Source of the DNA: Candidatus Latescibacterota bacterium
Lineage (GTDB): Bacteria; Latescibacterota; UBA2968; UBA8231
Direction: 5' to 3'
Assembly (NCBI GenBank): GCA_965206595.1
Contig: OZ242214.1
Coordinates: forward strand, 128,001 to 192,000
DNA: 64,000 nt
Part shown: in pieces, positions 9,853 to 40,700 of the stretch
Layout: the number at the start of each line of letters is the position of its first letter
Numbering within the stretch: the first letter of the stretch is position 1
The notes under the pieces: model-generated
What the model was told of the DNA's origin: nothing
Databases searched by the model: none
What the model saw: the letters and a program-made list of their open reading frames with translations, nothing else
Made by a program: the position numbers and the translations under genes

Positions 9853-12800
9853 GTGATCTTCAACCGCACCCCGTGGGTCGGGATTGCGCTCCTCCTCTCG
9901 GTCGCGGCGCTGGCTGTGGCCGCCGGAGCGCAGACCCCCTGGGCACCAGTGGGTCCGCCCGAGGCCGGTGCTCTCCAGGTTTCCGCGGAGTTCGACCGGC
10001 AGCTGACACGGGCCCGCGCCGTGCTGGCGAATTCCTGGACTGCGACTGTCGAAATGGTCGGGAAGACTTCCAACAGCGTGCGCCTGGTGTACGAGGCCGG
10101 ACCGGCAACACCGCCCGGCCCTGCTTCCGTAGAGCCGGTCGCCTTCGATCACCTCCGTGACCTCCACCGCAGCTGCACCGTAGGGATTCCCCCGGACAGT
10201 GAAGTCGAGATGGAGGTCGTCGATGCCCGCGTCGCCGCCCGAGTGCACGGTCCGGAGGCTGGCGAGCTGTTCGCGGGCACGGCGCAGGGACCGGTGGAGC
10301 TCGGGGAACGCGGTCTCCTGCGCAGGCAGGAAGTGGTGGCTCTCGGGTTCGGGCCGCGGCTGGACGGGGAGGAACTCACCGTGTTCGACCGCATCGAGGT
10401 CGAACTGCGCTTTTCATCGAACTTGACGTCCAACCGGCGTTTTCGGGCTGACAAGTGGGGGGAGATGCTGTATCGCAATACCCTGGTCAACTACGAGCAG
10501 GCGAGATCCTGGCGTCTTCCTGCCATGGGACCGGCGGCAGGAAAGATGGCCGATGGGTCCGCCCTGAGTGGCGAGGTGCTGAGGATAACGGTCCGCAAAA
10601 ACGGCCTATACAAGGTTACCGGGGGCGATCTGGCCGACGCGGGCATCCCCCTCGAGACAATCGACCCGGAGCATCTACGCATGCTCTACGGAGGAGGCAG
10701 GGTTCTCGGTCTCCAGCGCGCGGTCATTCAAGGTCTCCGCGTCCGTGATATACCGGTCCTGGTAGAAGACGGCGGCGACGGTCGCTTCGACGCCGGCGAT
10801 TTCCTCCTCTTCTACGGCGAGGCGACTGAACGCTGGGACTACCACCGCGGGGATGACCGCTATTTCTGGCGGGCGAACCCCTTCACCGAGGAGAACGCCT
10901 ACTTCCTCGATGCCGGCGCCGAAGTGCAGGGACGCAGGATGCGTCAACGCAGCGGGTCCCGCGATCACGGTTCGCCTCGCCCTGTCGACAGCTACCGCGA
11001 GCGGCTCCATCTCGAGGACGATCGCCTGATCCGGAACCAGTCGTTCGGCATCAAGTCGGGTTACGACTGGTACTGGGAGGACTTCGGGGGGAACGCGCGC
11101 AACTTTTCCGCCATCGTGCGCGACGCAGTTCCCGGAATTCCCGTCGATATCCGGGTCCGCTTCTGGGGCTCGAGAAGAAAGATCCACAGGTTCGATCTGT
11201 ACTGGAACGAAGAGCTGGTGGGGAAGGTCTCGATGGATAGCATGTCCGTTGCCACCCTCGAGGCGCAGGCTCCGCAGGGCGCGAAGGAGGGCCTGAACCA
11301 GCTCGGGGTTTTCCACCGCGACAACAAGGCGACGCGGCTGGACTGGATCGAGCTCGAATTCGATCGCCGGCTGTCGGCCGAGGGCGGGGAGCTGGCCTTC
11401 TCCTGGCCTCCCTCGGCGATGCCCGGGGAGGGGGAAGAGGTAACGGCGGAGTTCGTGCTGACCGGGTTCGCCGAAGAGGGGAAACCGCGGATCTTCGAGA
11501 TCTCGGATGTTGACGTGGCGAGTGAAATCGTCGGCTTCGACTACGACGAGACCACCGGAACCGCGGTCTTTCAGGACCGCTTCGACGGGGAGGGGCTTCC
11601 TCCGCGATACATCGCCAGCGTCCCGTCCCGCTGGAGGCTGCCCGCAAAAATGGAGCTCGATACCCCGAGCCGGCTGCGCACCCCGGACAACGGCGCCGAG
11701 TACGTCGTGCTCACCCATGCCGATTTCCGCGCAGCTGCGGACCGTCTGGCGGCGTGGCGCGCCGCCGGCGACCGGTTCGGACCGATGCGGACACTCTCCG
11801 TCGACGTCCAGGACGTGTACGACGAGTTCTCGGGGGGGCTCCTCGACCCGATGGCGATCCGGTCGTTCGTCAACTACGCCGTAGACAACTGGGATCCCGC
11901 CCCCTACTTCGTCTGCCTGATCGGTGACGGCACCTACGATTACAAGAACAACACCGGCACCAGTCGCCCGAACTGGATGCCGGCGTACCAGGAAGGCATC
12001 AGCATGTTCGATGAATGGTACGTGCGCGTAGAGGGAGAGGACCGGATTCCCGACCTGGCGATCGGCAGATTGGCGGTGCAGACGGCGGCCGAGGCCGAGG
12101 GGGTGGTCGACAAGCTGATCGCCTACGACTCGGACCCAGAGGTCGGACCCTGGCAGAGTCGCGTGCTGCTGGTGGCGGACGACCTGCGCCATCCTTCGAA
12201 ACTGAACTTGAGGGAATCCTATTTCATTGTCGACGCCGAAAACCTGGCGCGTCGCCAGCTCCCCACCGACTTCGATCTCGTCAAGCTCTACCTCGCCCAG
12301 TTTCCGCTCGAGGGGAGCACCAAGCCGCAGGCCAGGGAAGCATTCCTGCGCCGTTTCAACGAGGGGGCGCTGATCGTCACCTACATCGGGCACGGGAGCT
12401 ACAACGTGCTCGCCCACGAGAGTATGTTCCTTCTCTCCAGGGACGCCGACCGCATCGACAACGGCAGAAGGCTGCCGTTTATGTACACGGCCGCGAGCCA
12501 GGTGGGGGTGTTCGACCTACCGGACCAGCAGTCGATCCCCGAGATCCTGATGAACCGTCCCGATGGCGGGGTAATCGGGTTCATCTCGGCGGCCCGGGTT
12601 GGCTACCATACCAGCAACATGTACCTGGCCCGTGAATTTCACCGGCTGATGTACCGGTCGGAGGAAGACCACATGCCCCTGGGACTGGCGCTGACGATTG
12701 CCAAGCAGAACGTGACGGGTAGCAGGACAGACCGCACCAACATGCAGCGATACTGTCTGATCGGCGACCCGGCCATGCGCCTCGCCAGACCGCGGTACAC

Positions 12801-13791
12801 CGTCGCCATCGAAGTGCCGGATTCGATTCGGGCGCTCGAGGAGATTCCGATCGCCGGCCGCATCCTCGACGCCGAGCGCCGGGCGGCGGAGGACTTCACC
12901 GGAACCGCCCTCGTGCAGGCGTTCGACTCCAGTACGAAGAGCAAGTTGGATAGTATCACCTACAACCGCCCCGGGGCTCCGATTTTCCGCTGTCTGGTAC
13001 CGGTCGCCGCCGGCCGCTTCGAGACCGCCTTCCGGGTGCCCAAGGACCTCAGCTACAAGGAAGACAACGGCCGGGTCAGTGCCTATGTTTGGAGCGACGA
13101 TGCCCCGGCCGCTTTCGGGGCCGTCGACAGTCTGGTGATCGCCGGAACGGCGCCCGGTATCGTCGCCGACCAGACCGGCCCCGAGATCGCGATCCGATTC
13201 AAGGGGCAGGATAGTTTCAGCAGCGGTGACTTCATTTCCAGCGAAGCGGTCCTCGAGGCTGTGATCAGCGATCCGAACGGCATCAACATAACCGGAGAAA
13301 CCGGGCACGAAATGGAGTTCCGGGTGGATGACCGCCTCTTCATCGTCACCGAGTCCTTCTACAATACAGGGGACTACCGCAGCGGCCTGCTCGAATTCCC
13401 GCTTCCCGCCATGGAACCGGGTACCCACACCTTGCGTCTCAAGGCCTGGGACACGTTCAACAATTCGTCCCAGGTCGAGGCGGAAGTGCGCTTCTCCGAG
13501 GGGGACGACGGGGGGCTCTCCCGGCTGCTGTTCCACCCCAACCCCATGCGGCACGGGGGCGATTTCACATACACTCTCGAAATCGCTGCGGAGTCCGTCC
13601 ATATCAGGGTGTTCACGCTCGCCGGAAAGCTCGTCGACGAGCTCTCCGGCACGGGGCATGCCGACTTCAACCAGGTCGCCTGGACCCCGCCGAGGGAGCT
13701 CGCCAACGGCACCTACCTGTACCAGGTCGAGGTCGAGCGCGCAGATGGACTGCGCCTCGAAAAGAAGGCGGCCATCCAGGTGATGAAATGA
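9853..13791 (+). CDS. porU: Type IX secretion sortase PorU (C25/gingipain fold) with C-terminal sorting domain; Ser at the catalytic Cys position
   Basis: Signal peptide; YDEFSGG..DPMAIR; IGDGTYD; AIGRL; YIGHG; LIGDPA; LKAWDTFNN; HPNP...ANGTYLY CTD; directly upstream of porV. Confidence 0.88.
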   Translation: MIFNRTPWVGIALLLSVAALAVAAGAQTPWAPVGPPEAGALQVSAEFDRQLTRARAVLANSWTATVEMVGKTSNSVRLVYEAGPATPPGPASVEPVAFDHLRDLHRSCTVGIPPDSEVEMEVVDARVAARVHGPEAGELFAGTAQGPVELGERGLLRRQEVVALGFGPRLDGEELTVFDRIEVELRFSSNLTSNRRFRADKWGEMLYRNTLVNYEQARSWRLPAMGPAAGKMADGSALSGEVLRITVRKNGLYKVTGGDLADAGIPLETIDPEHLRMLYGGGRVLGLQRAVIQGLRVRDIPVLVEDGGDGRFDAGDFLLFYGEATERWDYHRGDDRYFWRANPFTEENAYFLDAGAEVQGRRMRQRSGSRDHGSPRPVDSYRERLHLEDDRLIRNQSFGIKSGYDWYWEDFGGNARNFSAIVRDAVPGIPVDIRVRFWGSRRKIHRFDLYWNEELVGKVSMDSMSVATLEAQAPQGAKEGLNQLGVFHRDNKATRLDWIELEFDRRLSAEGGELAFSWPPSAMPGEGEEVTAEFVLTGFAEEGKPRIFEISDVDVASEIVGFDYDETTGTAVFQDRFDGEGLPPRYIASVPSRWRLPAKMELDTPSRLRTPDNGAEYVVLTHADFRAAADRLAAWRAAGDRFGPMRTLSVDVQDVYDEFSGGLLDPMAIRSFVNYAVDNWDPAPYFVCLIGDGTYDYKNNTGTSRPNWMPAYQEGISMFDEWYVRVEGEDRIPDLAIGRLAVQTAAEAEGVVDKLIAYDSDPEVGPWQSRVLLVADDLRHPSKLNLRESYFIVDAENLARRQLPTDFDLVKLYLAQFPLEGSTKPQAREAFLRRFNEGALIVTYIGHGSYNVLAHESMFLLSRDADRIDNGRRLPFMYTAASQVGVFDLPDQQSIPEILMNRPDGGVIGFISAARVGYHTSNMYLAREFHRLMYRSEEDHMPLGLALTIAKQNVTGSRTDRTNMQRYCLIGDPAMRLARPRYTVAIEVPDSIRALEEIPIAGRILDAERRAAEDFTGTALVQAFDSSTKSKLDSITYNRPGAPIFRCLVPVAAGRFETAFRVPKDLSYKEDNGRVSAYVWSDDAPAAFGAVDSLVIAGTAPGIVADQTGPEIAIRFKGQDSFSSGDFISSEAVLEAVISDPNGINITGETGHEMEFRVDDRLFIVTESFYNTGDYRSGLLEFPLPAMEPGTHTLRLKAWDTFNNSSQVEAEVRFSEGDDGGLSRLLFHPNPMRHGGDFTYTLEIAAESVHIRVFTLAGKLVDELSGTGHADFNQVAWTPPRELANGTYLYQVEVERADGLRLEKKAAIQVMK

Positions 13792-13955: not shown

Positions 13956-15005
13956 GTGCTTGACAAACTCAGCGCCTGGTGCGTGACCGCCGCCCTGCTC
14001 GCCGCGGCCGCCGGGCCTGCCTCGGCAACCTCGGAGAGCCGCGCCACCGTCATTTTCCTTTTGATCAAACCGGATGCGCGCTCTATCGCCATGGGGGAGT
14101 CGTACGTCGCCGTCGCCGACAATGCCAGCTACTTCAACCCGGCCTCGCTCGCGGGGCAGACCGAGCGCAAGCTCCACCTGACCCATGCGAAGTGGCTTCC
14201 CGGTCTGGCCGACGACATGTCGTACGAGTATGTCGCCTACTCGCAACCGGTCGAGGGATGGGGAAACGTCGGTCTCAACGGAGTCTGGATGAACCTCGGT
14301 GAGCAAGCGTATACCGGCGAAAGGGGCGAGGTGCTCGACACCTTCTCGAGCAACGAGTTCGCGATCAGCGTCGCCTACGGCGCCGATGTCGCCGAAAACA
14401 TGAAGGCAGGCGTCGGCCTGAAGTTCATCCACAGCCGCCTCTCCCCCGAGTACGGTGCGGGCATCGAGCAAGGCGAGGGGGTCGGAAGCAGCTTTGCCGC
14501 CGACCTCGGTATCCTGTGGGACCTGACACCTGCGCTTACATTCGGCTCGGCGCTTCGCTACCTCGGTCCGAAGATGGCCTACATCGACCCCAGCCAGGCC
14601 GATCCCCTTCCGCAGCATGTCGTCGCCGGTTTCGCGTACGAGCTCCTCGACGCCGAGTACCACGACGTCCTGCTCGTATTCGATCTCTACAAGCCCCTGA
14701 TCGCCGAGGGCTCGTTCATCGGCAACCTGGTGAAGGCGTGGGCGGACGAGAGCATGGCGAACGAGTTCAAGGAGATGGACGTTCACGTCGGCGGGGAGTA
14801 CCGGTACGGCCTGTCGGCCCAGCAGGACCAGTCGTTTCTGGCGCTGCGGGCAGGATACAGGTGGGACCACGACGGCGAGCTGAAATTCCCCACGTTCGGG
14901 ATGGGTCTGAAATACAACATGTTCCAGGTCGACGTGGCATACGTAACGGGTACCGGCACCCCGATGGAGGACAACACCCGTTTCTCCCTGAACCTGACGT
15001 TCTGA
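13956..15005 (+). CDS. porV: PorV-family outer-membrane beta-barrel (T9SS shuttle)
   Basis: FLLIKPDARSIAMGE, FNPASL, KWLPGL, C-terminal Phe; follows porU; AGGAGG RBS. Confidence 0.85.
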   Translation: MLDKLSAWCVTAALLAAAAGPASATSESRATVIFLLIKPDARSIAMGESYVAVADNASYFNPASLAGQTERKLHLTHAKWLPGLADDMSYEYVAYSQPVEGWGNVGLNGVWMNLGEQAYTGERGEVLDTFSSNEFAISVAYGADVAENMKAGVGLKFIHSRLSPEYGAGIEQGEGVGSSFAADLGILWDLTPALTFGSALRYLGPKMAYIDPSQADPLPQHVVAGFAYELLDAEYHDVLLVFDLYKPLIAEGSFIGNLVKAWADESMANEFKEMDVHVGGEYRYGLSAQQDQSFLALRAGYRWDHDGELKFPTFGMGLKYNMFQVDVAYVTGTGTPMEDNTRFSLNLTF

Positions 15006-18000
15006 GGAGGCTCCGGGGACATTGGGGCGGACGCGCGTCCGCCCTGGCGGCTGCCCTTCTCCTCGCGGCGGGGGCCGGGGGACAGGAGGCCGGGACGTGG
15101 CGCGTTCTGGCGGTCCGGGTCGACTTCCCGCTCGAGGAGCCTGACGAGCCTTCGACTTCAGGCAGGGGGAAATTCGACCTCCGCACAAGCGCAGAAGCTC
15201 TCACTGACTACACCTTTCCCTACGATCTTCCACCTCACGACCGCCTCTATTTCGAGCGCCATCTCGACGCTCTCGGCCGCTACTACCGGACCGTTTCGGA
15301 GGGCCGCGTCGACATCGACTACGAAGTTTTCCCTACCGGTCTGAACGACGCTTACACCTTGCCGGAGCCGGCATTGCAGTACGGCATCGGCCGCTCGCCG
15401 CAGGAGATAACCGAAAAGTGGGTACGGTTGGTGCGCGACGCGGTCGAGCTTGCCCAGGCGGATGCCGGGGGTCCCGATTTTCCCCGGTTCGACAGCTACC
15501 TGTTTGCGCACGCCGGGGCCGGGCACGAGACCGGCCAGCTGAACGACATCCGCTCGGTGTTTCTGTCCGCGGACGACTTCGAGGGGAGTGCTGCGGGAGG
15601 TCCGATTCTCGCGGACGGCGTCGAGATCCGCGAGGCGTGGATCCTCCCCGAGGCGGTCGAAGGCAGCGACCGCGCCGGCGCCGGGCTCAACGGCCTGATG
15701 GCGAAGTTCTTCGGCCACCAGCTCGGGCTCCCCGGGCTGTCGAACTTCGCCGCCGGTCTGCCTGGGACCGGCGGCTGGAGCCTGATGGACGGCGGTCCCA
15801 ACCGGGTCGGCTTCCTGCTTCAGGGAGGTCAGTTGCAGACACTGTTCGGGTTCGTGCCCCCCCACCCGATCGCCTGGAGCAAGGCCCGCCTGGGCTGGAT
15901 CGAACCGCTCGCCGTGCGGCGGGATACCGCGGTCGCGGTGGCGGTGACGGACCGCACGGTTGCGCCGGGACAGCACAAGGCGGTGCGGGTGCCGATCTCG
16001 GCGACGGAGTATTTCCTGATCGAGAATCGCCAGCGGCGCGGCAACGCGGCGCTGCCCGAGGGGGTCGAGCCGCCGTTTGCGGGGATCGACGTAACCTGGA
16101 TCGAACCCGACGAGGTGGAATTTTCCGGGTCCGGGGACCCCGGCAGCGATCCGGATGCCGCACCCGAGACCGGGGTCTGGCTCGGGGTCGAGGAGTACGA
16201 CGCTTTCGTTCCCGGTTCCGGGATCCTGATCTGGCACGTCGACGAGGCCGTCATCGCGGCCGGGGAAGCGGAGGGAGGAATCAACAACGATCGCATCAAC
16301 CCCGGAATCGCGCTGGAGGAGGCGGACGGCGAGCGCGACATCGGCAACGCCTTTTTCGATCGCCAGGATGTCACCGAGGGCAGCCCTGCCGATCCCTTCT
16401 TCGCCGGGGAAGGGCGCGGAGGCATCCTTTCGAAGACTCTGTTCGGGCCCGGCACGACGCCGAGCACCGCGACCAACACCGGGGTTGCCAGCGGCATTCG
16501 CATCGAAGTGCTCTCCACCCTCGCCGACGTGATGACGGTCGGCATTCGCTTCAACGGCCCCCTGCCGGGCTGGCCGGCCAGCCTGCCGGCGGGGTCGCGG
16601 CTGCAGGCGGTCGATCTCGACGGCGACGGGGCCGCGGAGCTGCTGGCGGCAAACCACAGCGGCATTCACCTGTTCGCCAGCGGCCGGGCAACCGTCTCCG
16701 CTTCCTTTTCCGGAACGTACCTCGCCGCGGCTGCGGGGGGACCGGCAGAACCCGGCATGATTTTCGTGGCCTCGGGACGGGACGTCGCCGCCTACCTCCC
16801 GGATGGGGACGCGCCGGAGTGGTCGGCGAGCCTTGCCGGGGAGGCGGTAGTCGGACTCCGCGGCCGCCCGGGAGACTTGGCGCAGGAAGCGGCCCTCGCC
16901 GTGGCCACCGCCTCGAGAATCGAGCTTCTGAGCGCCGGCACCGGCGAGGTGCTGGCCGCTTTCGACCTTCCCGGAACCATCGCCCTCGGTCTGCTGCCGG
17001 ACGCCGGGGGGGAGAGGTCGCAGCTGCTGGTCACCACGGCAGACGCGGTCGCGGCCCTGGGGCCTGACGGCCTCCGGTGGCTCTGGGAACATCCCGGCGA
17101 AGGTCCGCTCTTGCCGGGCATCGCCGGAGACCTGGGCGGCGGCCGCGGCAGCGAGATCGTCTCCGTCTCCACCGACGGCACCGTTTCCGTCCTGAACGCG
17201 GAAGGGGAGGTTCTCTGGCAGGTGATGCTGCCGGAGAGTGCCGCCGCCCCTGCCGCCCTCGGGGACGTAGACGGCGACGGTTCCCTGGAGATTGCCGTGG
17301 CCACCGCTGCCGCGGTCGATCTGCTGCGGGAGAACGGCCACCGGATGTCGTCGTTTCCGGTGGAGTTCCGGAGACACCGGCAGCTCGGAGCGACCGCGGG
17401 CGAGCCGCTCCTGGCCGATCTCGACGGCGACGGCAGGCAGGAGATCCTCGTGGCGGCCAGCGCCGGTGCGATCGCCGGCATCGACGACGACGGCAGTCAA
17501 CTCGGCGGCTTTCCGGTTCTGACCGCGGCGGCGGTCAGCTCGACGCCGGTAGCCGCGGACCTCGACGGCGACGGGGAACTGGAGGTCGCCGTCCTGGCAG
17601 GAGACTTCGCCTACGCCTGGGATCCGCAGCGCCTGTCTCCGGGGCTGGGCGGGAGCGGAGTCGCCGCCTGGGGCCAGGGCGGGGCGGACGCAGAGGGGAG
17701 CCGCGCCCACCGCGGGGAACGCGTCCCGGCCCCGCCGCGAGTTGCCCTGCTGCCGGCCGACAGGGCGTACTGTTACCCCAATCCCGTCGGCCCGCGGCAG
17801 CGCGCCCACCTGCGCTACTACCTGAGCGGTGCGGCCGACATCGAGCTCGAGGTGTTCGACGCCATCGGAAGGCGGGTCGAGAGGCGCCGGTGGAGCGCCG
17901 GCTCGCCGCAGTCGGAGGCCGGGGAGAACGAGATCACCTGGGCGACCGGCGACTACGACAGCGGGCTCTACCTCTGCCGGCTCGAGGCGAGCGGCACCGA

Positions 18001-18046
18001 CGGCAGCCGCGGCCACGTCATCGTGCGCATGGCGGTCGCCCGATGA
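15002..18046 (+). CDS. Immune inhibitor A (M6)-like domain with degenerate zinc motif + FG-GAP/VCBS repeats + T9SS CTD; probable CTG start
   Basis: VLAVRVDF, HAGAGHE, KFFGHQLGLPG, WSLMD, WSKARLGWI, EYFLIENR, GILIWHVDE; several DLDGDG repeats; YPNP CTD. A signal-like sequence begins at CTG 15002. The product call is firmer than the start position. Confidence 0.8.
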   Translation: MRRLRGHWGGRASALAAALLLAAGAGGQEAGTWRVLAVRVDFPLEEPDEPSTSGRGKFDLRTSAEALTDYTFPYDLPPHDRLYFERHLDALGRYYRTVSEGRVDIDYEVFPTGLNDAYTLPEPALQYGIGRSPQEITEKWVRLVRDAVELAQADAGGPDFPRFDSYLFAHAGAGHETGQLNDIRSVFLSADDFEGSAAGGPILADGVEIREAWILPEAVEGSDRAGAGLNGLMAKFFGHQLGLPGLSNFAAGLPGTGGWSLMDGGPNRVGFLLQGGQLQTLFGFVPPHPIAWSKARLGWIEPLAVRRDTAVAVAVTDRTVAPGQHKAVRVPISATEYFLIENRQRRGNAALPEGVEPPFAGIDVTWIEPDEVEFSGSGDPGSDPDAAPETGVWLGVEEYDAFVPGSGILIWHVDEAVIAAGEAEGGINNDRINPGIALEEADGERDIGNAFFDRQDVTEGSPADPFFAGEGRGGILSKTLFGPGTTPSTATNTGVASGIRIEVLSTLADVMTVGIRFNGPLPGWPASLPAGSRLQAVDLDGDGAAELLAANHSGIHLFASGRATVSASFSGTYLAAAAGGPAEPGMIFVASGRDVAAYLPDGDAPEWSASLAGEAVVGLRGRPGDLAQEAALAVATASRIELLSAGTGEVLAAFDLPGTIALGLLPDAGGERSQLLVTTADAVAALGPDGLRWLWEHPGEGPLLPGIAGDLGGGRGSEIVSVSTDGTVSVLNAEGEVLWQVMLPESAAAPAALGDVDGDGSLEIAVATAAAVDLLRENGHRMSSFPVEFRRHRQLGATAGEPLLADLDGDGRQEILVAASAGAIAGIDDDGSQLGGFPVLTAAAVSSTPVAADLDGDGELEVAVLAGDFAYAWDPQRLSPGLGGSGVAAWGQGGADAEGSRAHRGERVPAPPRVALLPADRAYCYPNPVGPRQRAHLRYYLSGAADIELEVFDAIGRRVERRRWSAGSPQSEAGENEITWATGDYDSGLYLCRLEASGTDGSRGHVIVRMAVAR

Positions 18047-21000
18047 AACCGGCGGCGCCGGCCCTCCTCATACTGCTGTTCTGGCAGGGAGCTGCCCAGG
18101 CGCAGAACCACCCGGAGCTGCAGTGGGAGATCCTGCAGACCCCCCACTTCGAGGTCTTCTACCACGACGGGCTGCAGCAGGCTGCGGAGAGAGCTGCCGA
18201 GATCGCCGAAGCGGCGTACGGTCCGGTGACCGACCTCTACCATTACCGCCCCGGCGGCAGGGTGCGCATCGTCCTCAAGGATTACGACGACTACGCCAAC
18301 GGAGCCGCCTTCTTCTATCACGACGCGATCGAGATATGGACCACCCCCCTCGATCACGACTTCGACCTGCGCGGCACCTGCGACTGGCTGGCCAACGTCA
18401 TCACCCACGAGTTCGTGCACATCGTCTCTCTCGGAGCGGCGCGCAAGGCATGGAAACGCACCCCGGCGCTGTATCTCCAGCATTTCGGCTACCAGCGCGA
18501 GCGCAACCGCCCCGATGTCCTGACCGGGTTTCCCGACTTGCTGGTGTCGTATCCCCTGGCGGCCACGGTTTTCCCGATGTGGTTCGCCGAGGGAGTGGCC
18601 CAGTACCAGGTGGCCGCGGCCAGGCACGACCGCTGGGACGCTCACCGCGACATGGTGCTGCGCGTTGCCGCGCTCGAGGAGGAGATGCTGTCGTTCGACC
18701 GGATGGGGGTGTTCGCCAAGGCCGGCTTCGGCAACGAGTTCGTCTACGACCACGGCTACGCCCTGGTCCGCTACATTGCCGCCGAGCACGGCGACGACGC
18801 CCTGCAGCAGTTATGCGCCGCCCTGTCCGGCTGGCGCACCCTCGAGATCGACGGCGCCATCGAGGAGGTTCTCGGCATCACCGCCGACCAGCTCTACGAG
18901 GGGTGGCGGCGGCAGCTGGGGGAGCGCTACGGCAGGCAGCTCGCCGGTATCGGAGAGTTGCGGGAAGGTGAGGAGATCACCGATGCGGGGTTCTCCAACA
19001 TCCACCCGGCGTACGCCCCCGGAGGGGACCGGCTTGCCTTCCTCTCCACCGGGACAAGGGAATACGGACCCCACCGGCTCGTCATCCGCGACCTGGAGAC
19101 CGGGGAGGACGAGGTCATCGCCGCCGGCGTCGTGTCGCGGCCGACCTGGTCGCCGGACGGGCGCAGGATCGCTTACGTGCGCAAGCACCGCGCCGACAAG
19201 TACGGCTCGCGCCAGGCGGACGTTTTCACCTGCGACCTCGACGGCGACGAGCCGGGATTGCTGTCGAAACTGGCCTGGGCGCTGCCGGGAATGGTGGTCT
19301 CCTTCGCCCCGGAACCGGAGCGGGTGAAGCAGCTTTCCACCGGACTGCGCGCCCTCTACCCGGCCTGGTCCCCCGACGGCGAGTGGCTGGCGTTCATCCG
19401 CAACCAGGGCGGCTCGAACAACCTCGGCCTGCTCAGCGCCGACGGGACCGTCGTCCTCCACCTCACCGACTTCACCGACGGCACCGAGCTCTACACGCCG
19501 AGCTGGTCCCCGGACGGCGGGACCCTGGCCCTGTCCGTTTCCCGCAAGGGGCAGCGGGACCTCGTCCTGGTCGACCTCGAGCGCGGCCGGATCGACGCCC
19601 TTGCCAGGGAGCTGAGGAGCGGTAGCGGAGAGCAGGGGAGCGGTCCGATAGTTCATACCGATACGAGCCTGGCCGGCTCCATGCGGCCCCTGGTGGCGAC
19701 GGATGCCACCGAGCGGGATCCGGCCTGGACATCCGGGGGTGAGATCCTATTCGCCTCCGACGCCACCGGCATTTTCAACATCTACGCGATTCCGGCGGGG
19801 AAGGGGGAGATCCGCCGCATCACCAACGTGGTGGGGGGGGCGATCAATCCCGCGGCCGGTCCCGAAGGCAGCGTGGTCTTCTCCTCCTACGGAGCGGACG
19901 GGTTCCGTCTGCGCTCCATGGTGGACCGCGGCGGCAACGAGGCGGAGTTCATGCTGGACGGCATCGAGGCGGCGACCGCTTCGATGCCCGGGGCAGTTGC
20001 ACCGGAATTCCTGCCGGAGCCGGCAGCCCGCCCGGACCGGACGGCCGGGGGTGTCCTTGCGGAGCGGTCCTCCGCAGCGGCCTCTCCGGCAGCGATTTCC
20101 GCCCCGCGGGCGTACGGAGGAGAGCTGCTCAGGACGATGGTTCTGCCGCGCCTGATGTGGGACGAGGGCCGCTTCAAGGGGGGAGCGTACGCCGCGTCTT
20201 CCGACGTCCTGCGGAAGCAGAGCCTGTTCGGCGGCTTTGGCATCTCCCCGGACAACGGCGACCGCGAGCTCTTCGCCCTGTACGAGCACCGCGGCTGGCG
20301 GCCGACGGTGTTTCTCGAGTACTACCACCAGAAACGCCACACCAGCCGCGGCGACAGCAGCGACGCGCGGGATGACATCGTCACGGGGATGAACTTCAGT
20401 CTCAACCAGGTCTCCGCAGGCCTGAGGATCGGGGACGAGTTGCCCTCCCTGAGGCGCCAGCTCACCCTGTCGCTGACCTACGACCGCTACGACGCCGGCC
20501 TCGACTGGGAAGCCTTCGTAACCCGCAGCGACGGCGCCCCCGGTTTCGAGCGCCGCCGCATGAAACCGATCGGCTATACCTACCTGAACGGCTTCGCCCT
20601 CGGGGCCCGCTACGACTACGAAACGGTGGAGCGCCGCCGCGACAGGGAGATCAGCCCTCGCGGGGGCCGCCGCATCCGCTTCCGCTACGACCGGGTGTTC
20701 AACTTCTTCCTCGAGGAATTCAACCGCAACAACGCTTCCTTCCTCGAGGAGGTGTACCTCAAACTGTTCTACAACCAGTGGACCCTGGACTGGAGGGAAT
20801 ACCTCGGCACGCCGTTCGACACCGCCCTGGAGCTGCGTTTCTTCGGAGGGTGGATCGACAGCGACAAGGTCGACGGCGACGACGTCAACGACTTCTTCGA
20901 CTACCACCTCGGCGGCCTGCAATACATGAAGGGGTACACCTTTTACAGCATAGAGGGGCGCAAGGCGGCGATGGGATCGGCGTTGTTTCGCTTCCCCCTT

Positions 21001-21285
21001 CTGCCCGACATGCGAAGGCGGCTCTTTCACATCTACCTCGACAAGCTGTACGGAGCGGTCTACGGAAGCATGGGCAAAGCCTGGGACGAGAAGTTCGGCG
21101 ATACCGATCCCTTCTACGGCCGCTCCGGCCCGTTGCGCGACATCGGCGTTCAGTTGCGCCTCGATTCGATCTCGTATTACAGTTTGCCGACCCGGGCACA
21201 GGCCGATCTCGCGCGCGGGATCGACGAGCTGCCCGGTCGCTCCCACTGGAAATTCTACCTCACCGTACTGTTCGGATATCTGTAG
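18043..21285 (+). CDS. Peptidase MA-like (HExxH) + PD40/TolB propeller + Omp85/BamA-like barrel protein
   Basis: ATG overlaps the upstream TGA; signal peptide AQA; HEFVH...WFAEG; WSPDG repeats; LGG...KGY loop motif and C-terminal beta strands. Confidence 0.85.
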   Translation: MKPAAPALLILLFWQGAAQAQNHPELQWEILQTPHFEVFYHDGLQQAAERAAEIAEAAYGPVTDLYHYRPGGRVRIVLKDYDDYANGAAFFYHDAIEIWTTPLDHDFDLRGTCDWLANVITHEFVHIVSLGAARKAWKRTPALYLQHFGYQRERNRPDVLTGFPDLLVSYPLAATVFPMWFAEGVAQYQVAAARHDRWDAHRDMVLRVAALEEEMLSFDRMGVFAKAGFGNEFVYDHGYALVRYIAAEHGDDALQQLCAALSGWRTLEIDGAIEEVLGITADQLYEGWRRQLGERYGRQLAGIGELREGEEITDAGFSNIHPAYAPGGDRLAFLSTGTREYGPHRLVIRDLETGEDEVIAAGVVSRPTWSPDGRRIAYVRKHRADKYGSRQADVFTCDLDGDEPGLLSKLAWALPGMVVSFAPEPERVKQLSTGLRALYPAWSPDGEWLAFIRNQGGSNNLGLLSADGTVVLHLTDFTDGTELYTPSWSPDGGTLALSVSRKGQRDLVLVDLERGRIDALARELRSGSGEQGSGPIVHTDTSLAGSMRPLVATDATERDPAWTSGGEILFASDATGIFNIYAIPAGKGEIRRITNVVGGAINPAAGPEGSVVFSSYGADGFRLRSMVDRGGNEAEFMLDGIEAATASMPGAVAPEFLPEPAARPDRTAGGVLAERSSAAASPAAISAPRAYGGELLRTMVLPRLMWDEGRFKGGAYAASSDVLRKQSLFGGFGISPDNGDRELFALYEHRGWRPTVFLEYYHQKRHTSRGDSSDARDDIVTGMNFSLNQVSAGLRIGDELPSLRRQLTLSLTYDRYDAGLDWEAFVTRSDGAPGFERRRMKPIGYTYLNGFALGARYDYETVERRRDREISPRGGRRIRFRYDRVFNFFLEEFNRNNASFLEEVYLKLFYNQWTLDWREYLGTPFDTALELRFFGGWIDSDKVDGDDVNDFFDYHLGGLQYMKGYTFYSIEGRKAAMGSALFRFPLLPDMRRRLFHIYLDKLYGAVYGSMGKAWDEKFGDTDPFYGRSGPLRDIGVQLRLDSISYYSLPTRAQADLARGIDELPGRSHWKFYLTVLFGYL

Positions 21286-32834: not shown

Positions 32835-33785
32835 CTACGCGTATCCGAACTCCTTCAGGTCGCGGTCGCGGTTGCGCCAGTCGCGGCGCACCTTTACCCG
32901 CAGCTCGAGATAAACCTCGCGGTCGAGCAGCTCTTCGATGCCCGCCCTGGCGCGGCTGCCGATTCTCTTCAGCATGCTGCCCCCGCGCCCGATGACGATC
33001 CCCTTCTGGCTCTCGCGGTCGACGTAGAGAACCGCGCTGACGTAGGTCTTTTCCCGTCTGGGGGAATCCCCTCGACGGGAGCCTTCCGCTTCGGGGTCGC
33101 GGAAGTCATCGACGTCGACGGCGATCGCGTAGGGCAACTCCTCGGAAAGCTGTTCGAAGGCCGCCTCGCGGACCAGCTCGCCGGCAAAGAACCGCTCCGG
33201 CTGGTCGGCGATGACCTCGTCCGGGTAGAGCCTCGCCCCCAACGGCAGCGCCGCTTCCAGCTCGGCCAGCAACGGGGGGACGTTCTCCCCCGTGACGGCT
33301 GAAACCGCACGCAGGGTATCCAGGCCGAGGTCGCCGGCGACAGCGGCGGCAACCCGCTCGCGGGAATCCTTCGGGATCGTATCGATCTTGTTCAGCGCCG
33401 CCATCACCGGTGCCTTCGCTCTCTCAAGGAAGGAGCTTACCAGGTCGATGCGGTTGCGCGGCCGCGATCCGTCGACGAGCAGCAGGATCACGTCGGCGTC
33501 GCGGGCCGAGCGGTCGATCTGACGTCCCATGGTCTCGTGCAGGCGGTAGCTCGGCTCCAGGAGGCCAGGGGTGTCGAGGAAGATCATCTGGCTCTCCGGG
33601 CGGCTGAGGATTCCGCGAATGCTGCAGCGCGTCGTCTGGGCCTTGGCGGTGACGATCGACAGCCGCTGCCCGAGGAAGGCGTTGAACAGGGTCGACTTGC
33701 CCGCGTTCGGCCGCCCGACGAGGGCGACGTATCCGCAGCGTGTGGCGGCGGACGGGGTAGGTGGATCGTTGGCTGGTGCGCTCAG
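32835..33785 (-). CDS. era: GTPase Era; probable CTG start at 33785
   Basis: My manual translation upstream of ATG 33587 gives GYVALVGRPNAGKSTL (G1) and KAQTTR (G2), in frame with DTPG, NKID and the KH motif IGRGG. Confidence 0.95.
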   Translation of the reverse strand: MSAPANDPPTPSAATRCGYVALVGRPNAGKSTLFNAFLGQRLSIVTAKAQTTRCSIRGILSRPESQMIFLDTPGLLEPSYRLHETMGRQIDRSARDADVILLLVDGSRPRNRIDLVSSFLERAKAPVMAALNKIDTIPKDSRERVAAAVAGDLGLDTLRAVSAVTGENVPPLLAELEAALPLGARLYPDEVIADQPERFFAGELVREAAFEQLSEELPYAIAVDVDDFRDPEAEGSRRGDSPRREKTYVSAVLYVDRESQKGIVIGRGGSMLKRIGSRARAGIEELLDREVYLELRVKVRRDWRNRDRDLKEFGYA

Positions 33786-34711
33786 AAGTCCGTGGTCGCC
33801 GAGAAGACGTAGGTCGCCTCGAGATCGTGCCGCTGATAGGCCAGGTCCAGCCGCAGCATGTCGTGCGCCCGGATGCCGATACCGAAGGCCTGGCGCTCTT
33901 CCTGGAGACCCGTTCTCAGGGCGAGCCTTCCCAGGTCGTACTCGATCCCTGCAAGCATCGCGGCGGCTCCGCCGGAGGCGTCGCCCCCCCCGGTACCCCC
34001 CAGCGCGAGATTGGCACGGCCCTGCCCCACGGCCCGGGTGATTGCGGCGGCGAGGAGGACGGAAGGCCGGATGGGGTCGCTGGTACCGGTGCTCCAGGAA
34101 ATCGGCGAGGTGGGGGCATCACGCAGGACCGCGGCGATAGCCACTCCCGGGGACAGGCGAAAGCGGGCGCCGAGGTCGAGCCCGGCTCCGTAGGCGCTGA
34201 AGCTCGCCACGGTTCTGTACACGACTTTCACGCTCGCCCCGAGGTCAAGGCGGTCCGAGGCGCAGCGGCCGGCGGATAGGTACAGGGCGTAGTCCGAACT
34301 GACCTCCATGGAGGAGACCTGCGGCCGGTTGTCGGCACTCAGAGGGGCGCCGGGATCGGGCAGCGCCGTGAAAGCGATGTCGCCTACGGCCAGCCGCAAC
34401 ATCCCGACCGAAACGCCGTCGAAGAGCAGAAACCGCTCGAAGTTGACGGCGGCGAAGTCGTGCGAGACGAGACCGGCATACCGCTCGGAGTGCATCAGGT
34501 GGGCGCTGCGCTCGAGACCGGTCAGGGCCGCCGGGTTCCAGTAACCGGCGGTCGCGTCGTCGACCAGGGCGAGGCTGGCGCTCCCGAGAGCGAGGCCGCG
34601 AGCCCCGGCTCCGACGGCGAGAAACTCGCCGGCATAGCCTGTGTCCGCGGAGGCCGGCCCCCGGCCGGGGAGCAGGATCACGGCGGCGAGCAGAATCGGG
34701 GGAAATTTCAT
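33782..34711 (-). CDS. PorV/UPF0164-family outer-membrane barrel (second paralog)
   Basis: FLAVGAGARGLALG, YWNPAAL, GLDLG, C-terminal Phe; ATG at 34711. Confidence 0.8.
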   Translation of the reverse strand: MKFPPILLAAVILLPGRGPASADTGYAGEFLAVGAGARGLALGSASLALVDDATAGYWNPAALTGLERSAHLMHSERYAGLVSHDFAAVNFERFLLFDGVSVGMLRLAVGDIAFTALPDPGAPLSADNRPQVSSMEVSSDYALYLSAGRCASDRLDLGASVKVVYRTVASFSAYGAGLDLGARFRLSPGVAIAAVLRDAPTSPISWSTGTSDPIRPSVLLAAAITRAVGQGRANLALGGTGGGDASGGAAAMLAGIEYDLGRLALRTGLQEERQAFGIGIRAHDMLRLDLAYQRHDLEATYVFSATTDF

Positions 34712-34764
34712 TGCGGAAAGTGTATGTGGGGCCCCGGGGAGGGTCAAGAAAGTCGGACGCCGGC

Positions 34765-37786: not shown

Positions 37787-40700
37787 ATGATCGCGCGCAG
37801 AACCTGTCTCGCCGCCGCCGTCGCAGTCGCCCTCACCGGGACGAGTTGCGACAGGGAACGCAGCAACCCGCTCGATCCCCAGGGGGATTTCGTGCGCAAG
37901 CGCCCCACTACCCCGGCGGGATTGGCTGCGGAGCCGGGAGTAGGCGTGGTGCGGCTGAGCTGGCAGGCGGTCGAGGATCTCGATCTGGCCGGGTACGCCC
38001 TGTTGCGGTCGGAAGACGCTGCCGCGGTATTCACCTTTCTCCCCGGCAGGGGCTCCGGCGGCGCCACCATTACAACCGGGAAGACCTCCTTCGTCGACTC
38101 GCTGCATTCCTTCGCGGGGAGGACCTTTTTCTATCGCGTCGCCGCGGTCGACACCTCCGGGCTGCAGAGCCTGCCGTCCGGTTTCGTAGGGGCCACGGTG
38201 CTCGAGGACAAGGTCGCACCAGAGCCGCCCCGGAGCCTGGCGGCGATTCCGGACGAGAGCGAGCCGCGCGTCACCCTCCTGTGGACACCTCCGGTGCGCG
38301 ACGCTGGCGGCGGGGAGCTTTCCGGGTTGGCCGGGTATGCGATCCTGCGGGGGGAACCGGAGTCGGGCGGAACCGTGCCTGTCGACACTGTCGCCGCGGA
38401 GACCCGGCAGTACGTCGACGAGGGCCTGAAAGCGCTGACGTCGTACAGCTATTCGATAGTGGCCTTCGACCAGGCGGGTAATACGAGCAGCCTTTCGCAG
38501 GTCGTGCAGGTCACCACGCCGGGGTTGCCGGTTCCCGCCAACCTCGCGGCGCAATCCGGACCGGGCCGCATCGAGGTGAGCTGGGTGGCGGTGGAAGACG
38601 AGGAGCTTCTGGGGTACAACGTGTATCGTTCGGAGCGCCCCGACGAGTCGTTCGAGCGGTTGCCTGGGACGGAGGGGACGCCCTTCACGACAGGTCGCAC
38701 GAGCTACGTGGATACGAGCGTGGCGGTGGGCCGTCCGTATTACTACAAGGTGCAGTCGGTGGGGCGGACGCACCGTTCGGAGCTGTCGGTGTTCGTGGAC
38801 GGGGAGGCGCTGGCGGACGAGGTGCCTCCGGAGTCACCGCGCAACCTGTCGGCGCTGGCGGACGAATCGGAGTTTGGCCGGGTGACGGTGACGTGGAACG
38901 CCCCTCTGAGGGATGACGACCGGGGTGAGCTGACCGGCCTGTCCGGGTATCGGGTGTTCCGGTCTCAGGGAACGACGGACTCGTTCGTGCAGGTGGCGGC
39001 GGTGTCCGAGGCTCGGTATGAGGACAGCGGGTTGGAGGAGTCGACGACGTATTACTACACGGTGTTGGCGGTGGACGGGTCGGGGAACGAGTCGGGGCGT
39101 GCGGCGCCGGTGCGGGTGAAGACGCAGGGGGCCGACGAGGTTTCTCCTGGAGTGCCCCGGAACGTGTCGGCGGTTGCGGAGGGGGGTTTCACGGACCGGA
39201 TTGCGGTACGCTGGAGCGCGCCGACGACGGACGCGGACGGGGGTGAGCTGACGGGGTTGTCGGGGTTCACGGTGTATCGCTCGGAGGGGGTATCGGGTTC
39301 GCTGGTGTCGGTGGCGACGGTGGGACCGGAGGTCCGGGAGTATGTGGACGAAGGGTTGCGGTCGCTGACGGAGTATGGGTATGCGGTGACCGCGTTCGAC
39401 GGTTCGGGCAACGAGTCGGGTCAGTCCGGGTTGTCTCGAGCGCGCACGGAGGGGATTGCGATTCCGTCGGGGGTCCGGGCAGAGGACGGTATCGGCCGCA
39501 TCGAGGTGAGCTGGGCGGCGGTGGAAGACGAGGAGCTTCTGGGGTACAACGTGTATCGTTCGGAGCGCCCCGACGAGTCGTTCGAGCGGTTGCCTGGGAC
39601 GGAGGGGACGCCCTTCACGACAGGTCGCACGAGCTACGTGGATACGAGCGTGGCGGTGGGCCGTCCGTATTACTACAAGGTGCAGTCGGTGGGGCGGACG
39701 CACCGTTCGGAGCTGTCGGTGTTCGTGGACGGGGAGGCGCTGGCGGACGAGGTGCCTCCGGAGTCACCGCGCAACCTGTCGGCGCTGGCGGACGAATCGG
39801 AGTTTGGCCGGGTGACGGTGACGTGGAACGCCCCTCTGAGGGATGACGACCGGGGTGAGCTGACCGGCCTGTCCGGGTATCGGGTGTTCCGGTCTCAGGG
39901 AACGACGGACTCGTTCGTGCAGGTGGCGGCGGTGTCCGAGGCTCGGTATGAGGACAGCGGGTTGGAGGAGTCGACGACGTATTACTACACGGTGTTGGCG
40001 GTGGACGGGTCGGGGAACGAGTCGGGGCGTGCGGCGCCGGTGCGGGTGAAGACGCAGGGGGCCGACGAGGTTTCTCCTGGAGTGCCCCGGAACGTGTCGG
40101 CGGTTGCGGAGGGGGGTTTCACGGACCGGATTGCGGTACGCTGGAGCGCGCCGACGACGGACGCGGACGGGGGTGAGCTGACGGGGTTGTCGGGGTTCAC
40201 GGTGTATCGCTCGGAGGGGGTATCGGGTTCGCTGGTGTCGGTGGCGACGGTGGGACCGGAGGTCCGGGAGTATGTGGACGAGGGCCTTCGGTCGCTGACG
40301 GAGTATGGGTATGCGGTGACCGCGTTCGACGGTTCGGGCAACGAGTCGGGTCAGTCCGGGTTGTCTCGAGCGCGCACGGAGGGGATCGCGATTCCGTCGG
40401 GGGTCCGGGCAGAGGACGGTATCGGCCGCATCGAGGTGAGCTGGGCGGCGGTGGAAGACGAGGGGTTGATCGGCTACAACGTCTACCGCTCGCGTCGTCC
40501 CGACCTGGAGTTCGAGCGACTGGGTTCGGCAACGGGGGCGTCGTTCACGACGGCCCGTACGAGCTACGTCGATTCGAATCTGGTTGCCGGGGCGCGCTAT
40601 TACTACAAGGTGTCGTCGGTGTCGTCGGCATTTGAAAGCGAGCTGTCCGGATATGTCGGCGGGGAGTCCCGGTCGGACGCCTCGGCCCCGGAGCCTCCGG

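Follow-up and report, generated by a model that had tools for sequence, protein, structure and literature searches.

Serine at the site of the catalytic cysteine in the type IX secretion sortase PorU of Candidatus Latescibacterota

Introduction

Clan CD peptidases, a group that includes caspases, legumains, separase, gingipains and PorU, are regarded as obligate cysteine enzymes; exchange of the cysteine for serine is the standard means of inactivating them. What, then, is to be made of a PorU, the sortase of type IX secretion systems (T9SS), which carries this exchange naturally? The gene in question lies in a stretch of 64,000 nucleotides, hereafter the window, from Candidatus Latescibacterota bacterium (GCA_965206595.1, contig OZ242214.1, positions 128,001 to 192,000 of the forward strand); coordinates below are window positions. 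A preliminary description of this DNA had noted the serine and proposed either a serine-nucleophile enzyme or an inactive scaffold, whilst allowing for a strain-level mutation or a read error. The first two proposals survive the analysis reported here and the last falls: the serine, Ser882, is fixed under purifying selection, and is neither an error nor a quirk of one strain. The protein belongs to a known enzyme family and a known system; what is new is that one residue of the catalytic pair has changed and that the change is fixed throughout a large clade, save for rare cysteine members. It is modestly probable that it is a working serine-nucleophile peptidase for C-terminal sorting domains (CTDs), built on the caspase/gingipain fold.

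A serine in the column of the catalytic cysteine

The gene and its relevant parts are as follows.

9853..13791, + strand: porU orthologue, 1312 residues, with a signal peptide-like N-terminus; matched by NF033707 and 6za2_A
11701..12783, + strand: Peptidase C25 (gingipain/caspase-fold) catalytic domain, residues 617-977; Pfam PF01364, 263.4 bits, profile positions 1-374 of 374
12391..12393, + strand: CAC, His847, catalytic histidine of the C25 dyad, in the motif 'TYIGHGS'; aligns to the GHG histidine of PorU (6za2) and RgpB (1cvr)
12496..12498, + strand: AGC, Ser882, aligned with C690 of P. gingivalis, the catalytic cysteine, in the context LPFMYTAASQVGVFD; 35 residues after His847
12595..12597, + strand: Arg915, equivalent of P. 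gingivalis PorU Arg722, with 'saaRvgy' aligned to 'sttRvvy' of 6za2; 33 residues after Ser882
13537..13734, + strand: C-terminal tail of PorU resembling the T9SS type A sorting domain, residues 1229-1294; TIGR04183, 20 bits, E-value 5e-4, cut-off 23

The protein is recognised by the NCBIfam model NF033707, 'T9SS sortase PorU', with 617.1 bits against a cut-off of 420, the match extending over residues 239-1299 and model positions 4-1083 of 1095. In a phmmer comparison with PDB chains, PorU of Porphyromonas gingivalis (6za2_A) matches it with an E-value of 8e-61 in an alignment that reaches residue 1299. The C-terminal part of the P. gingivalis protein aligns continuously with the tail of the window PorU, where the TIGR04183 score is slightly below its cut-off.

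The codons reported in the preliminary description, CAC at 12391 and AGC at 12496, and the interval of 35 residues between them are exact, and both lie in frame in the open reading frame (ORF) 9853..13791. The alignment to P. gingivalis PorU that it proposed as a check places Ser882 on the catalytic cysteine. In the phmmer alignments 'lpfmytaaSqvgvfd' of the window is paired with 'mpiwitatCdfanyd' of 6za2_A and with 'lpfifdvaCvngdf' of gingipain R (1cvr_A), and it is because Ser882 is matched in both to the catalytic cysteine that it is assigned to this column. The role of C690 is documented by the description of porU C690A as a 'catalytic mutant' (PMC5562754), and a Cys/His dyad in PorU is described in a review (PMC10202324). 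Of the two residues expected of a C25 peptidase of clan CD, the window PorU thus has the catalytic histidine and lacks the cysteine nucleophile. Arg915 marks it further as a PorU, since its counterpart Arg722 was singled out by Gorasia et al. (PMC4560394) as a residue that PorU orthologues conserve and gingipains lack.

The C25 caspase-hemoglobinase fold is supported by the PF01364 match and by structure prediction. An AlphaFold2 model of residues 600-1016, built with 72 of 120 alignment rows, has a mean predicted local distance difference test score (pLDDT) of 93.6, and the best Foldseek matches of the modelled domain are the gingipains RgpB and Kgp (4ief, 1cvr and 6i9a; E-value 2e-21 for RgpB) and PorU (6za2). 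These gingipains, RgpB and Kgp of MEROPS family C25, share the histidine and nucleophile columns with the window domain; they differ in having only about 18% identity to it, in being cysteine proteases, and in being cargo of the T9SS and not part of its machinery. The resemblance to P. gingivalis PorU goes further, including the architecture over residues 239-1299, the C25 fold, the catalytic histidine, the Arg722 equivalent and the CTD-like C-terminal tail. The window PorU departs from it in having Ser882 for Cys690, Ala881 for threonine or serine, fixed Gln883, Gly917 and His919, and a spacing of 35 residues, as against 33, between histidine and nucleophile. The hosts also differ, Latescibacterota in the one case and Bacteroidota in the other.

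Fixation of the serine across relatives

Might the serine be no more than an error of sequencing or assembly, or a strain-level TGC to AGC mutation in an ordinary cysteine PorU? AGC is one base away from TGC. Contigs from four runs in four studies, of which one or two may be the source sample of the assembly, span 12300-12700; apart from a C>T at 12341, seen in two of the four, they are identical there, and AGC stands at 12496-12498 in all, so that the check at 12496 suggested earlier upholds the serine. AGY codons are found at this site in two genomes of the same genus, with three copies between them, as well as in all the other genera of the family. The contigs from the four studies and the AGY codons in relatives rule out error or private mutation, to the point of extreme improbability.

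Amongst the 19 genomes of the same family first examined (17 genera, the window's own genome included), the best PorU copy carries serine in every case, and so do 13 of their 14 additional copies, the other having cysteine. All of 22 further copies have serine; they come from 14 closed genomes of genus g14, two genomes of g21 with two copies each, a single genome of g16, another of g3, and a pair from f9, a family in another class. In total serine is found in 54 of 55 genomic copies and cysteine in one, across 19 genera of Candidatus Latescibacterota. The preliminary description had looked for conservation of the serine across genera, especially with both AGY and TCN codons, as a sign of selection. 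Serine is indeed kept across genera, but the second part of this expectation is not borne out, the codons in the genomic copies being 34 AGC, 20 AGT and no TCN. The synonymous turnover between AGC and AGT with no change of amino acid shows purifying selection on the serine.

The same picture is obtained from a collection of 5.8 billion proteins, in which 115 of the 116 listed clusters (90% identity) nearest the window have histidine and serine, and one has histidine and cysteine. Where a source gives these clusters a name, it is mostly 'type IX secretion system sortase PorU [Candidatus Latescibacteria/Latescibacterota bacterium]', a few being labelled Gemmatimonadota, and the serine-type proteins are annotated simply as 'sortase PorU' or 'C25 family cysteine peptidase'.

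Phylogeny of the serine clade and reversions to cysteine

A HMMER search with the catalytic domain against 1.84 billion cluster representatives gave 15,840 hits, roughly 3,700 of them with an E-value below 1e-30, and the residues were read in the best 150. Within these 150, serine is present in 14, all of them amongst those nearest the window, and cysteine in 131, a number which includes one sequence (P0107) first flagged as serine and counted as cysteine after by-eye correction of a one-column misalignment. Five gave no reading at the site, one being too short and four having no local alignment there.

All serine sequences fall into one clade in a maximum-likelihood tree of 96 domains (Shimodaira–Hasegawa-like approximate likelihood ratio test, SH-aLRT, 100; 36 rows, 34 Ser and 2 Cys), and this clade is nested among cysteine PorUs. 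A second tree of 63 rows, with extra genomic copies, places two cysteine sequences deep within the serine clade, each as sister to a serine copy. One, L127 (G011:C108:5051-6307), is paired with L023, a serine copy from the same genome, G011 (support 99), and the other, P0186, with P0178 (support 100). L127 and P0186 both carry V886A ('CQVGAFD'), four residues past the nucleophile. A third cysteine sequence, P0010, is grouped with two serine sequences in a polytomy at the base, whose branching order the tree does not resolve. Since well-supported branches require them, there have been at least three changes at the nucleophile column; the simplest reading of the tree would be one Cys-to-Ser change and two Ser-to-Cys reversions. 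The presence of V886A in both revertants suggests steric coupling between the nucleophile atom and the side chain of residue 886.

In a survey of the phylum covering 140 genomes, cysteine PorUs were found in families f5-f8 and f10-f13, and serine PorU in f9 and in f1, where 62 of 62 genomes have a serine-type match by identity. With the query used, families f2-f4 yielded no canonical PorU, only a long C25 paralogue of 1,800-2,200 residues. Several members of the window's family (G018, G016, G003, G007 and the g21 genomes) have 2-4 serine-type PorU copies, and the closed g14 genomes have one.

Conservation of the active site

If the cysteine had been lost by decay, or if another cysteine had taken over its function, the remainder of the active site should bear the traces. 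Conservation was assessed in 126 sequences of the serine clade, with 86 cysteine PorUs for comparison and 24 clade rows in the column comparisons. The nucleophile column holds serine in 125 of the 126 and cysteine in one, and never alanine, glycine, threonine or asparagine. Seven residues, Asp777, His847, Glu856, Asp888, Glu897, Arg915 and Asn922, are invariant in all 126. At least 85% conservation in the cysteine PorUs is seen at 56 positions, 49 of which the serine clade retains at 90% or more; the nucleophile is the sole radical change among the 56, the remaining changes being conservative (I/L, Y/F). No part of the domain is better conserved than segment 874-890, whose mean column identity is 0.91 against 0.72 for the domain as a whole, and the active-site residues are held whilst divergence within the clade reaches about 48% identity.

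Several residues seldom seen in other PorUs have become fixed in this clade, namely Ala881 (threonine or serine elsewhere), Gln883, Gly917 and His919, all next to the site, and Pro896. From the layout of the caspase fold and the strand order of the AlphaFold2 model, residues 915-919 are expected to belong to the loop that binds the substrate, alongside the catalytic pair. The 'LLVADD' strand ends in the invariant Asp776/Asp777, which alignment places next to Glu152 of RgpB, described as the third member of the gingipain triad, and for this reason a carboxylate-His-Ser arrangement is plausible in the serine PorU. The ratio of PorU to PorV identity, taken as a gauge of relaxed selection, gave no clear sign either way: it was 0.67-0.85 in six Ser-Ser pairs and 0.72-1.00 in three Cys-Cys pairs, the pairs being few and their ranges overlapping.

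A different cysteine at the catalytic site had been named in the preliminary description as a finding that would overturn its claim; it could come about by a shifted alignment or by relocation of the nucleophile. Two candidates, Cys688 and Cys968, do lie inside the C25 domain of the window protein. Each is cysteine in only 3 of the 24 clade rows, however; in no column of the domain does cysteine reach even half of the clade, and it is absent altogether from 23 of the 109 full-length members. With the HMMER alignments to PorU and to RgpB both placing Ser882 on the catalytic cysteine, the possibility that another cysteine took over as nucleophile is excluded for the clade and can be given almost no credence.

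Serine peptidase or pseudopeptidase

Two accounts of the fixed serine are left to be weighed. If Ser882 is a working nucleophile, the cysteine nucleophile would have given way to serine through a single nucleotide substitution (TGY to AGY), in an ancestor from which part of Candidatus Latescibacterota descends. PorU would thereafter have been a His-Ser peptidase, probably assisted by aspartate or glutamate, which would cut the CTD off cargo delivered by PorV. Its acyl-enzyme would be an oxyester rather than a thioester, and could favour hydrolytic release of the cargo over its transfer to a surface amine. By general chemistry, familiar from work on subtilisin, thiolsubtilisin and subtiligase, an oxyester would be expected to partition more to water than a thioester, so the enzyme may be a cargo-releasing signal peptidase more than a sortase. 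Transpeptidation through a serine acyl-enzyme is still feasible, penicillin-binding proteins being an example.

Several lines of evidence favour such an enzyme. The histidine, the arginine, the acidic residues and the nucleophile segment remain fixed down to about 48% identity, and the position admits serine and cysteine alone, both of them capable of acting as nucleophiles. Cysteine appears to have returned twice, with the same V886A adjustment; the flanking residues seem to have been retuned and then frozen; and some lineages have nothing else for the task. This pattern argues against decay, although conservation cannot prove activity.

The last of these points concerns the other C25 proteins of the phylum. 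The window's own genome encodes a C25 paralogue of 1841 residues (G000:C1:5014598-5020123; L009:1599-7124), which has a CTD and in which the motifs 'NGHG' and 'AFSCLNG' are intact; it falls below the cut-offs of both the PorU model (295 against 420) and the PorU2 model (223 against 450). Long cysteine-bearing paralogues of this kind are present in 18 of the 19 family genomes first examined and in most genomes of the class. At about 1,850-1,950 residues, and related to NF052324 ('putative T9SS sortase PorU2'), they resemble the serine PorU in belonging to the C25 family, at 35-41% identity, in having a CTD and in occurring in the same genomes. They differ in keeping the cysteine ('SCLNG'), in being about 550 residues longer, in having no adjacent PorV here and in falling outside the PorU clade in the tree. 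That a cysteine paralogue does the work was considered as a general account and rejected, because a second C25 domain is missing from five closed, single-contig g14 genomes: searched in six frames with Pfam PF01364, each yielded one such domain and no more, that of the serine PorU. These five genomes contain 49-113 matches to the type A sorting domain model, TIGR04183, together with a complete SprA translocon. All 14 closed g14 genomes checked have the serine, and many closed genomes of this genus showed just one match.

Some observations weigh against catalysis by the serine. The codons are of the AGY type only, and selection for serine across both codon families is thus unsupported. A C2029S form of separase has been deposited in the PDB (9hm7, among the Foldseek matches), and Cys-to-Ser mutants such as this are usually made as inactive forms. 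The long cysteine-bearing paralogue is present in most genomes of the family, the window's own included. A natural precedent points the same way. MCA4 of Trypanosoma brucei, the only tested natural His-Ser member of clan CD, is described in PMC3220528 as inactive on all substrates tried and active as S219C, so that an otherwise intact site with serine can be dead. Where prokaryotic metacaspases have naturally lost the catalytic cysteine, it is most often serine that stands in its place (PMC3501461), and forms with the cysteine replaced are taken there and in PMC6426788 as non-catalytic.

Some of these observations lend substance to a second account, in which the serine PorU is a conserved pseudopeptidase: Ser882 would abolish catalysis, and the protein would be a non-catalytic part of a PorV-linked surface complex, such as a CTD-binding receptor, a substrate trap or a scaffold, with any removal of CTDs left to the long cysteine C25 paralogue or to an unrelated protease. 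A pseudopeptidase of clan CD is recognised by loss of one or both residues of the dyad, and here the cysteine has given way to serine with the histidine kept, as in T. brucei MCA4. Since MCA4 is inactive and its S219C form active, an intact-looking site and a natural 'resurrection' by cysteine are both compatible with a dead enzyme. A role for the paralogue in the window's own genome would be allowed by its intact histidine and cysteine, and the 2-4 serine-type copies in several genomes are as expected of diversifying binding proteins. PorU is, moreover, dispensable for some secretion in Flavobacterium johnsoniae (review, PMC11611037).

Set against this second account are the persistence of His847 and of all other family-conserved residues in 126 of 126 sequences, the nucleophile segment being the most conserved of the domain, and a position that never drifts to alanine, glycine, threonine or asparagine. 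The five closed genomes with their many CTD matches have no other C25 domain to which the task could pass. In the window's own genome no PorV-family gene stands beside the long paralogue, the nearest match being about 380 kb away. Pseudo-orthocaspases, although widespread, usually lose the histidine also (PMC6426788). A conserved pseudopeptidase is a serious contender, albeit one that appears appreciably less than evenly likely.

Like the serine PorU, MCA4, a protein of clan CD and family C14B, has the caspase fold, keeps the histidine and has undergone a natural change of cysteine to serine (PMC3220528), and its activation by S219C parallels the natural Ser-to-Cys reversions within the serine clade. 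It differs in belonging to family C14 and not C25, in coming from another kingdom and in being a single paralogue beside active metacaspases, whereas the serine PorU occupies a whole bacterial clade and is the sole C25 domain in some closed genomes.

If Ser882 is indeed a catalytic nucleophile, the clan CD fold would here have its first natural enzyme with a serine nucleophile, and a lineage of Latescibacterota would run its T9SS with an oxyester-forming His-Ser PorU whose nucleophile is tuned and reversible, having changed from cysteine to serine once and back at least twice, each time with V886A, and which may shift the balance from attachment by transpeptidation toward release by hydrolysis. 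Taken together, these claims fall a little short of even likelihood. A literature search, thin on subscription journals, found no paper on serine-type PorU or on the T9SS in Latescibacterota.

In either case the serine clade offers a clean natural test of serine catalysis on the caspase/gingipain fold. Should serine catalysis be true, it would provide a retuned active site for dissection, comprising Ala881, Gln883, Gly917, His919 and the V886A coupling, and the sortase step of the T9SS would use a different chemistry outside the Bacteroidota. Should the protein be a pseudopeptidase, the T9SS of this clade would work with a catalytically dead PorU, which would change the accepted model, whereby PorV becomes available for a further round once PorU has removed the CTD.

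Genomic context of porU

The genes that follow porU bear on its orthology and on the secretion system to which it would belong.

13956..15005, + strand: porV-family outer-membrane shuttle gene, directly downstream of porU; NF033709 (PorV/PorQ), 226.8 bits against a cut-off of 90, and Pfam PorV
14516..18046, + strand: homologue of M6-like metalloproteases, carrying a CTD and FG-GAP repeats; NF052323 at 332 bits (cut-off 600, not reached), with FG-GAP matches
17077..21285, + strand: TolB-like beta-propeller, fourth gene of the cluster; TIGR02800, 104 bits, under its cut-off, and in the same position in loci L173, L175, L176 and L178

The model NF052323 describes a 'T9SS-dependent M6-like inactivated metalloprotease', and an M6-like gene follows porV in five related loci. 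As its longest ORF overlaps porV, the true start of this gene is probably near 15005; the start of the TolB-like gene is likewise uncertain, its longest ORF overlapping the preceding gene. Family scans found the order porU, porV, M6-like, TolB-like at the serine loci of the window, L173 (f9) and L178 (g14) and at the cysteine loci L175 (f13) and L176 (f10). By ORF order and sizes alone the same arrangement is seen at the serine locus L179 (genus g9) and the cysteine locus L177 (f12), and at one cysteine locus, L174, the gene order differs. An order common to serine and cysteine loci indicates that the serine gene is the positional orthologue of ordinary PorU and not a stray paralogue; it is best explained as having come down vertically, linked to its operon. 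As in the P. gingivalis type of context, porU of the window adjoins porV, and its genome has SprA (615 bits summed) and tens of CTD cargo matches, the C-terminal end of the PorU model finding about 50 that comprise the CTD alone. The GldM model had no match in this genome and likewise none in the control genomes.

The four-gene cluster is kept across families of Latescibacterota irrespective of serine or cysteine in PorU, with a propeller protein of about 1,040 residues. Propeller-plus-CTD proteins might act as a stand-in for PorZ. The M6-like protein of the window reads 'FFGHQLGLP' at the place where we presume an HExxH motif is to be expected.

C25 domains were also met outside the clade. 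The search of contigs for loci related to porU returned five clade loci, all duplicates of known ones, and for the remainder mostly C25 domains of Chloroflexota at 30-38% identity, which have little bearing on PorU. Dozens of contigs from metagenome-assembled genomes (MAGs) of Chloroflexota (Anaerolineae), among loci L045-L118, thus carry C25 domains with 30-38% identity to the PorU catalytic domain and with histidine and cysteine intact. Chloroflexota are not known to have a T9SS. Two MAG contigs labelled Acidobacteria and Blastocatellia (L046 and L092; one tblastn match each) have a C25 domain which is not a PorU but of the type common in Chloroflexota, with serine (AGC) in the nucleophile column, the site reading 'LSLSSVDGFFHF' as against 'LPMTCYEGSYHF'. 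In these two, family C25 would have exchanged its cysteine for serine independently.

Elsewhere in the window a second PorV-like barrel is encoded at 33785-34747 on the - strand, matching NF052325 ('putative type IX sorting system protein PorV2') with 137 bits, under the cut-off of 325. It adjoins a glycerate kinase-like gene and era, with no PorU2-type gene beside it. Lastly, an ORF of 2201 residues at 37787-44392 on the + strand matches the exoglucanase CbhB model in 11 stretches (395 bits against a cut-off of 1950), as well as an MXYO-CTERM-anchored family, and probably encodes a large repetitive surface protein.

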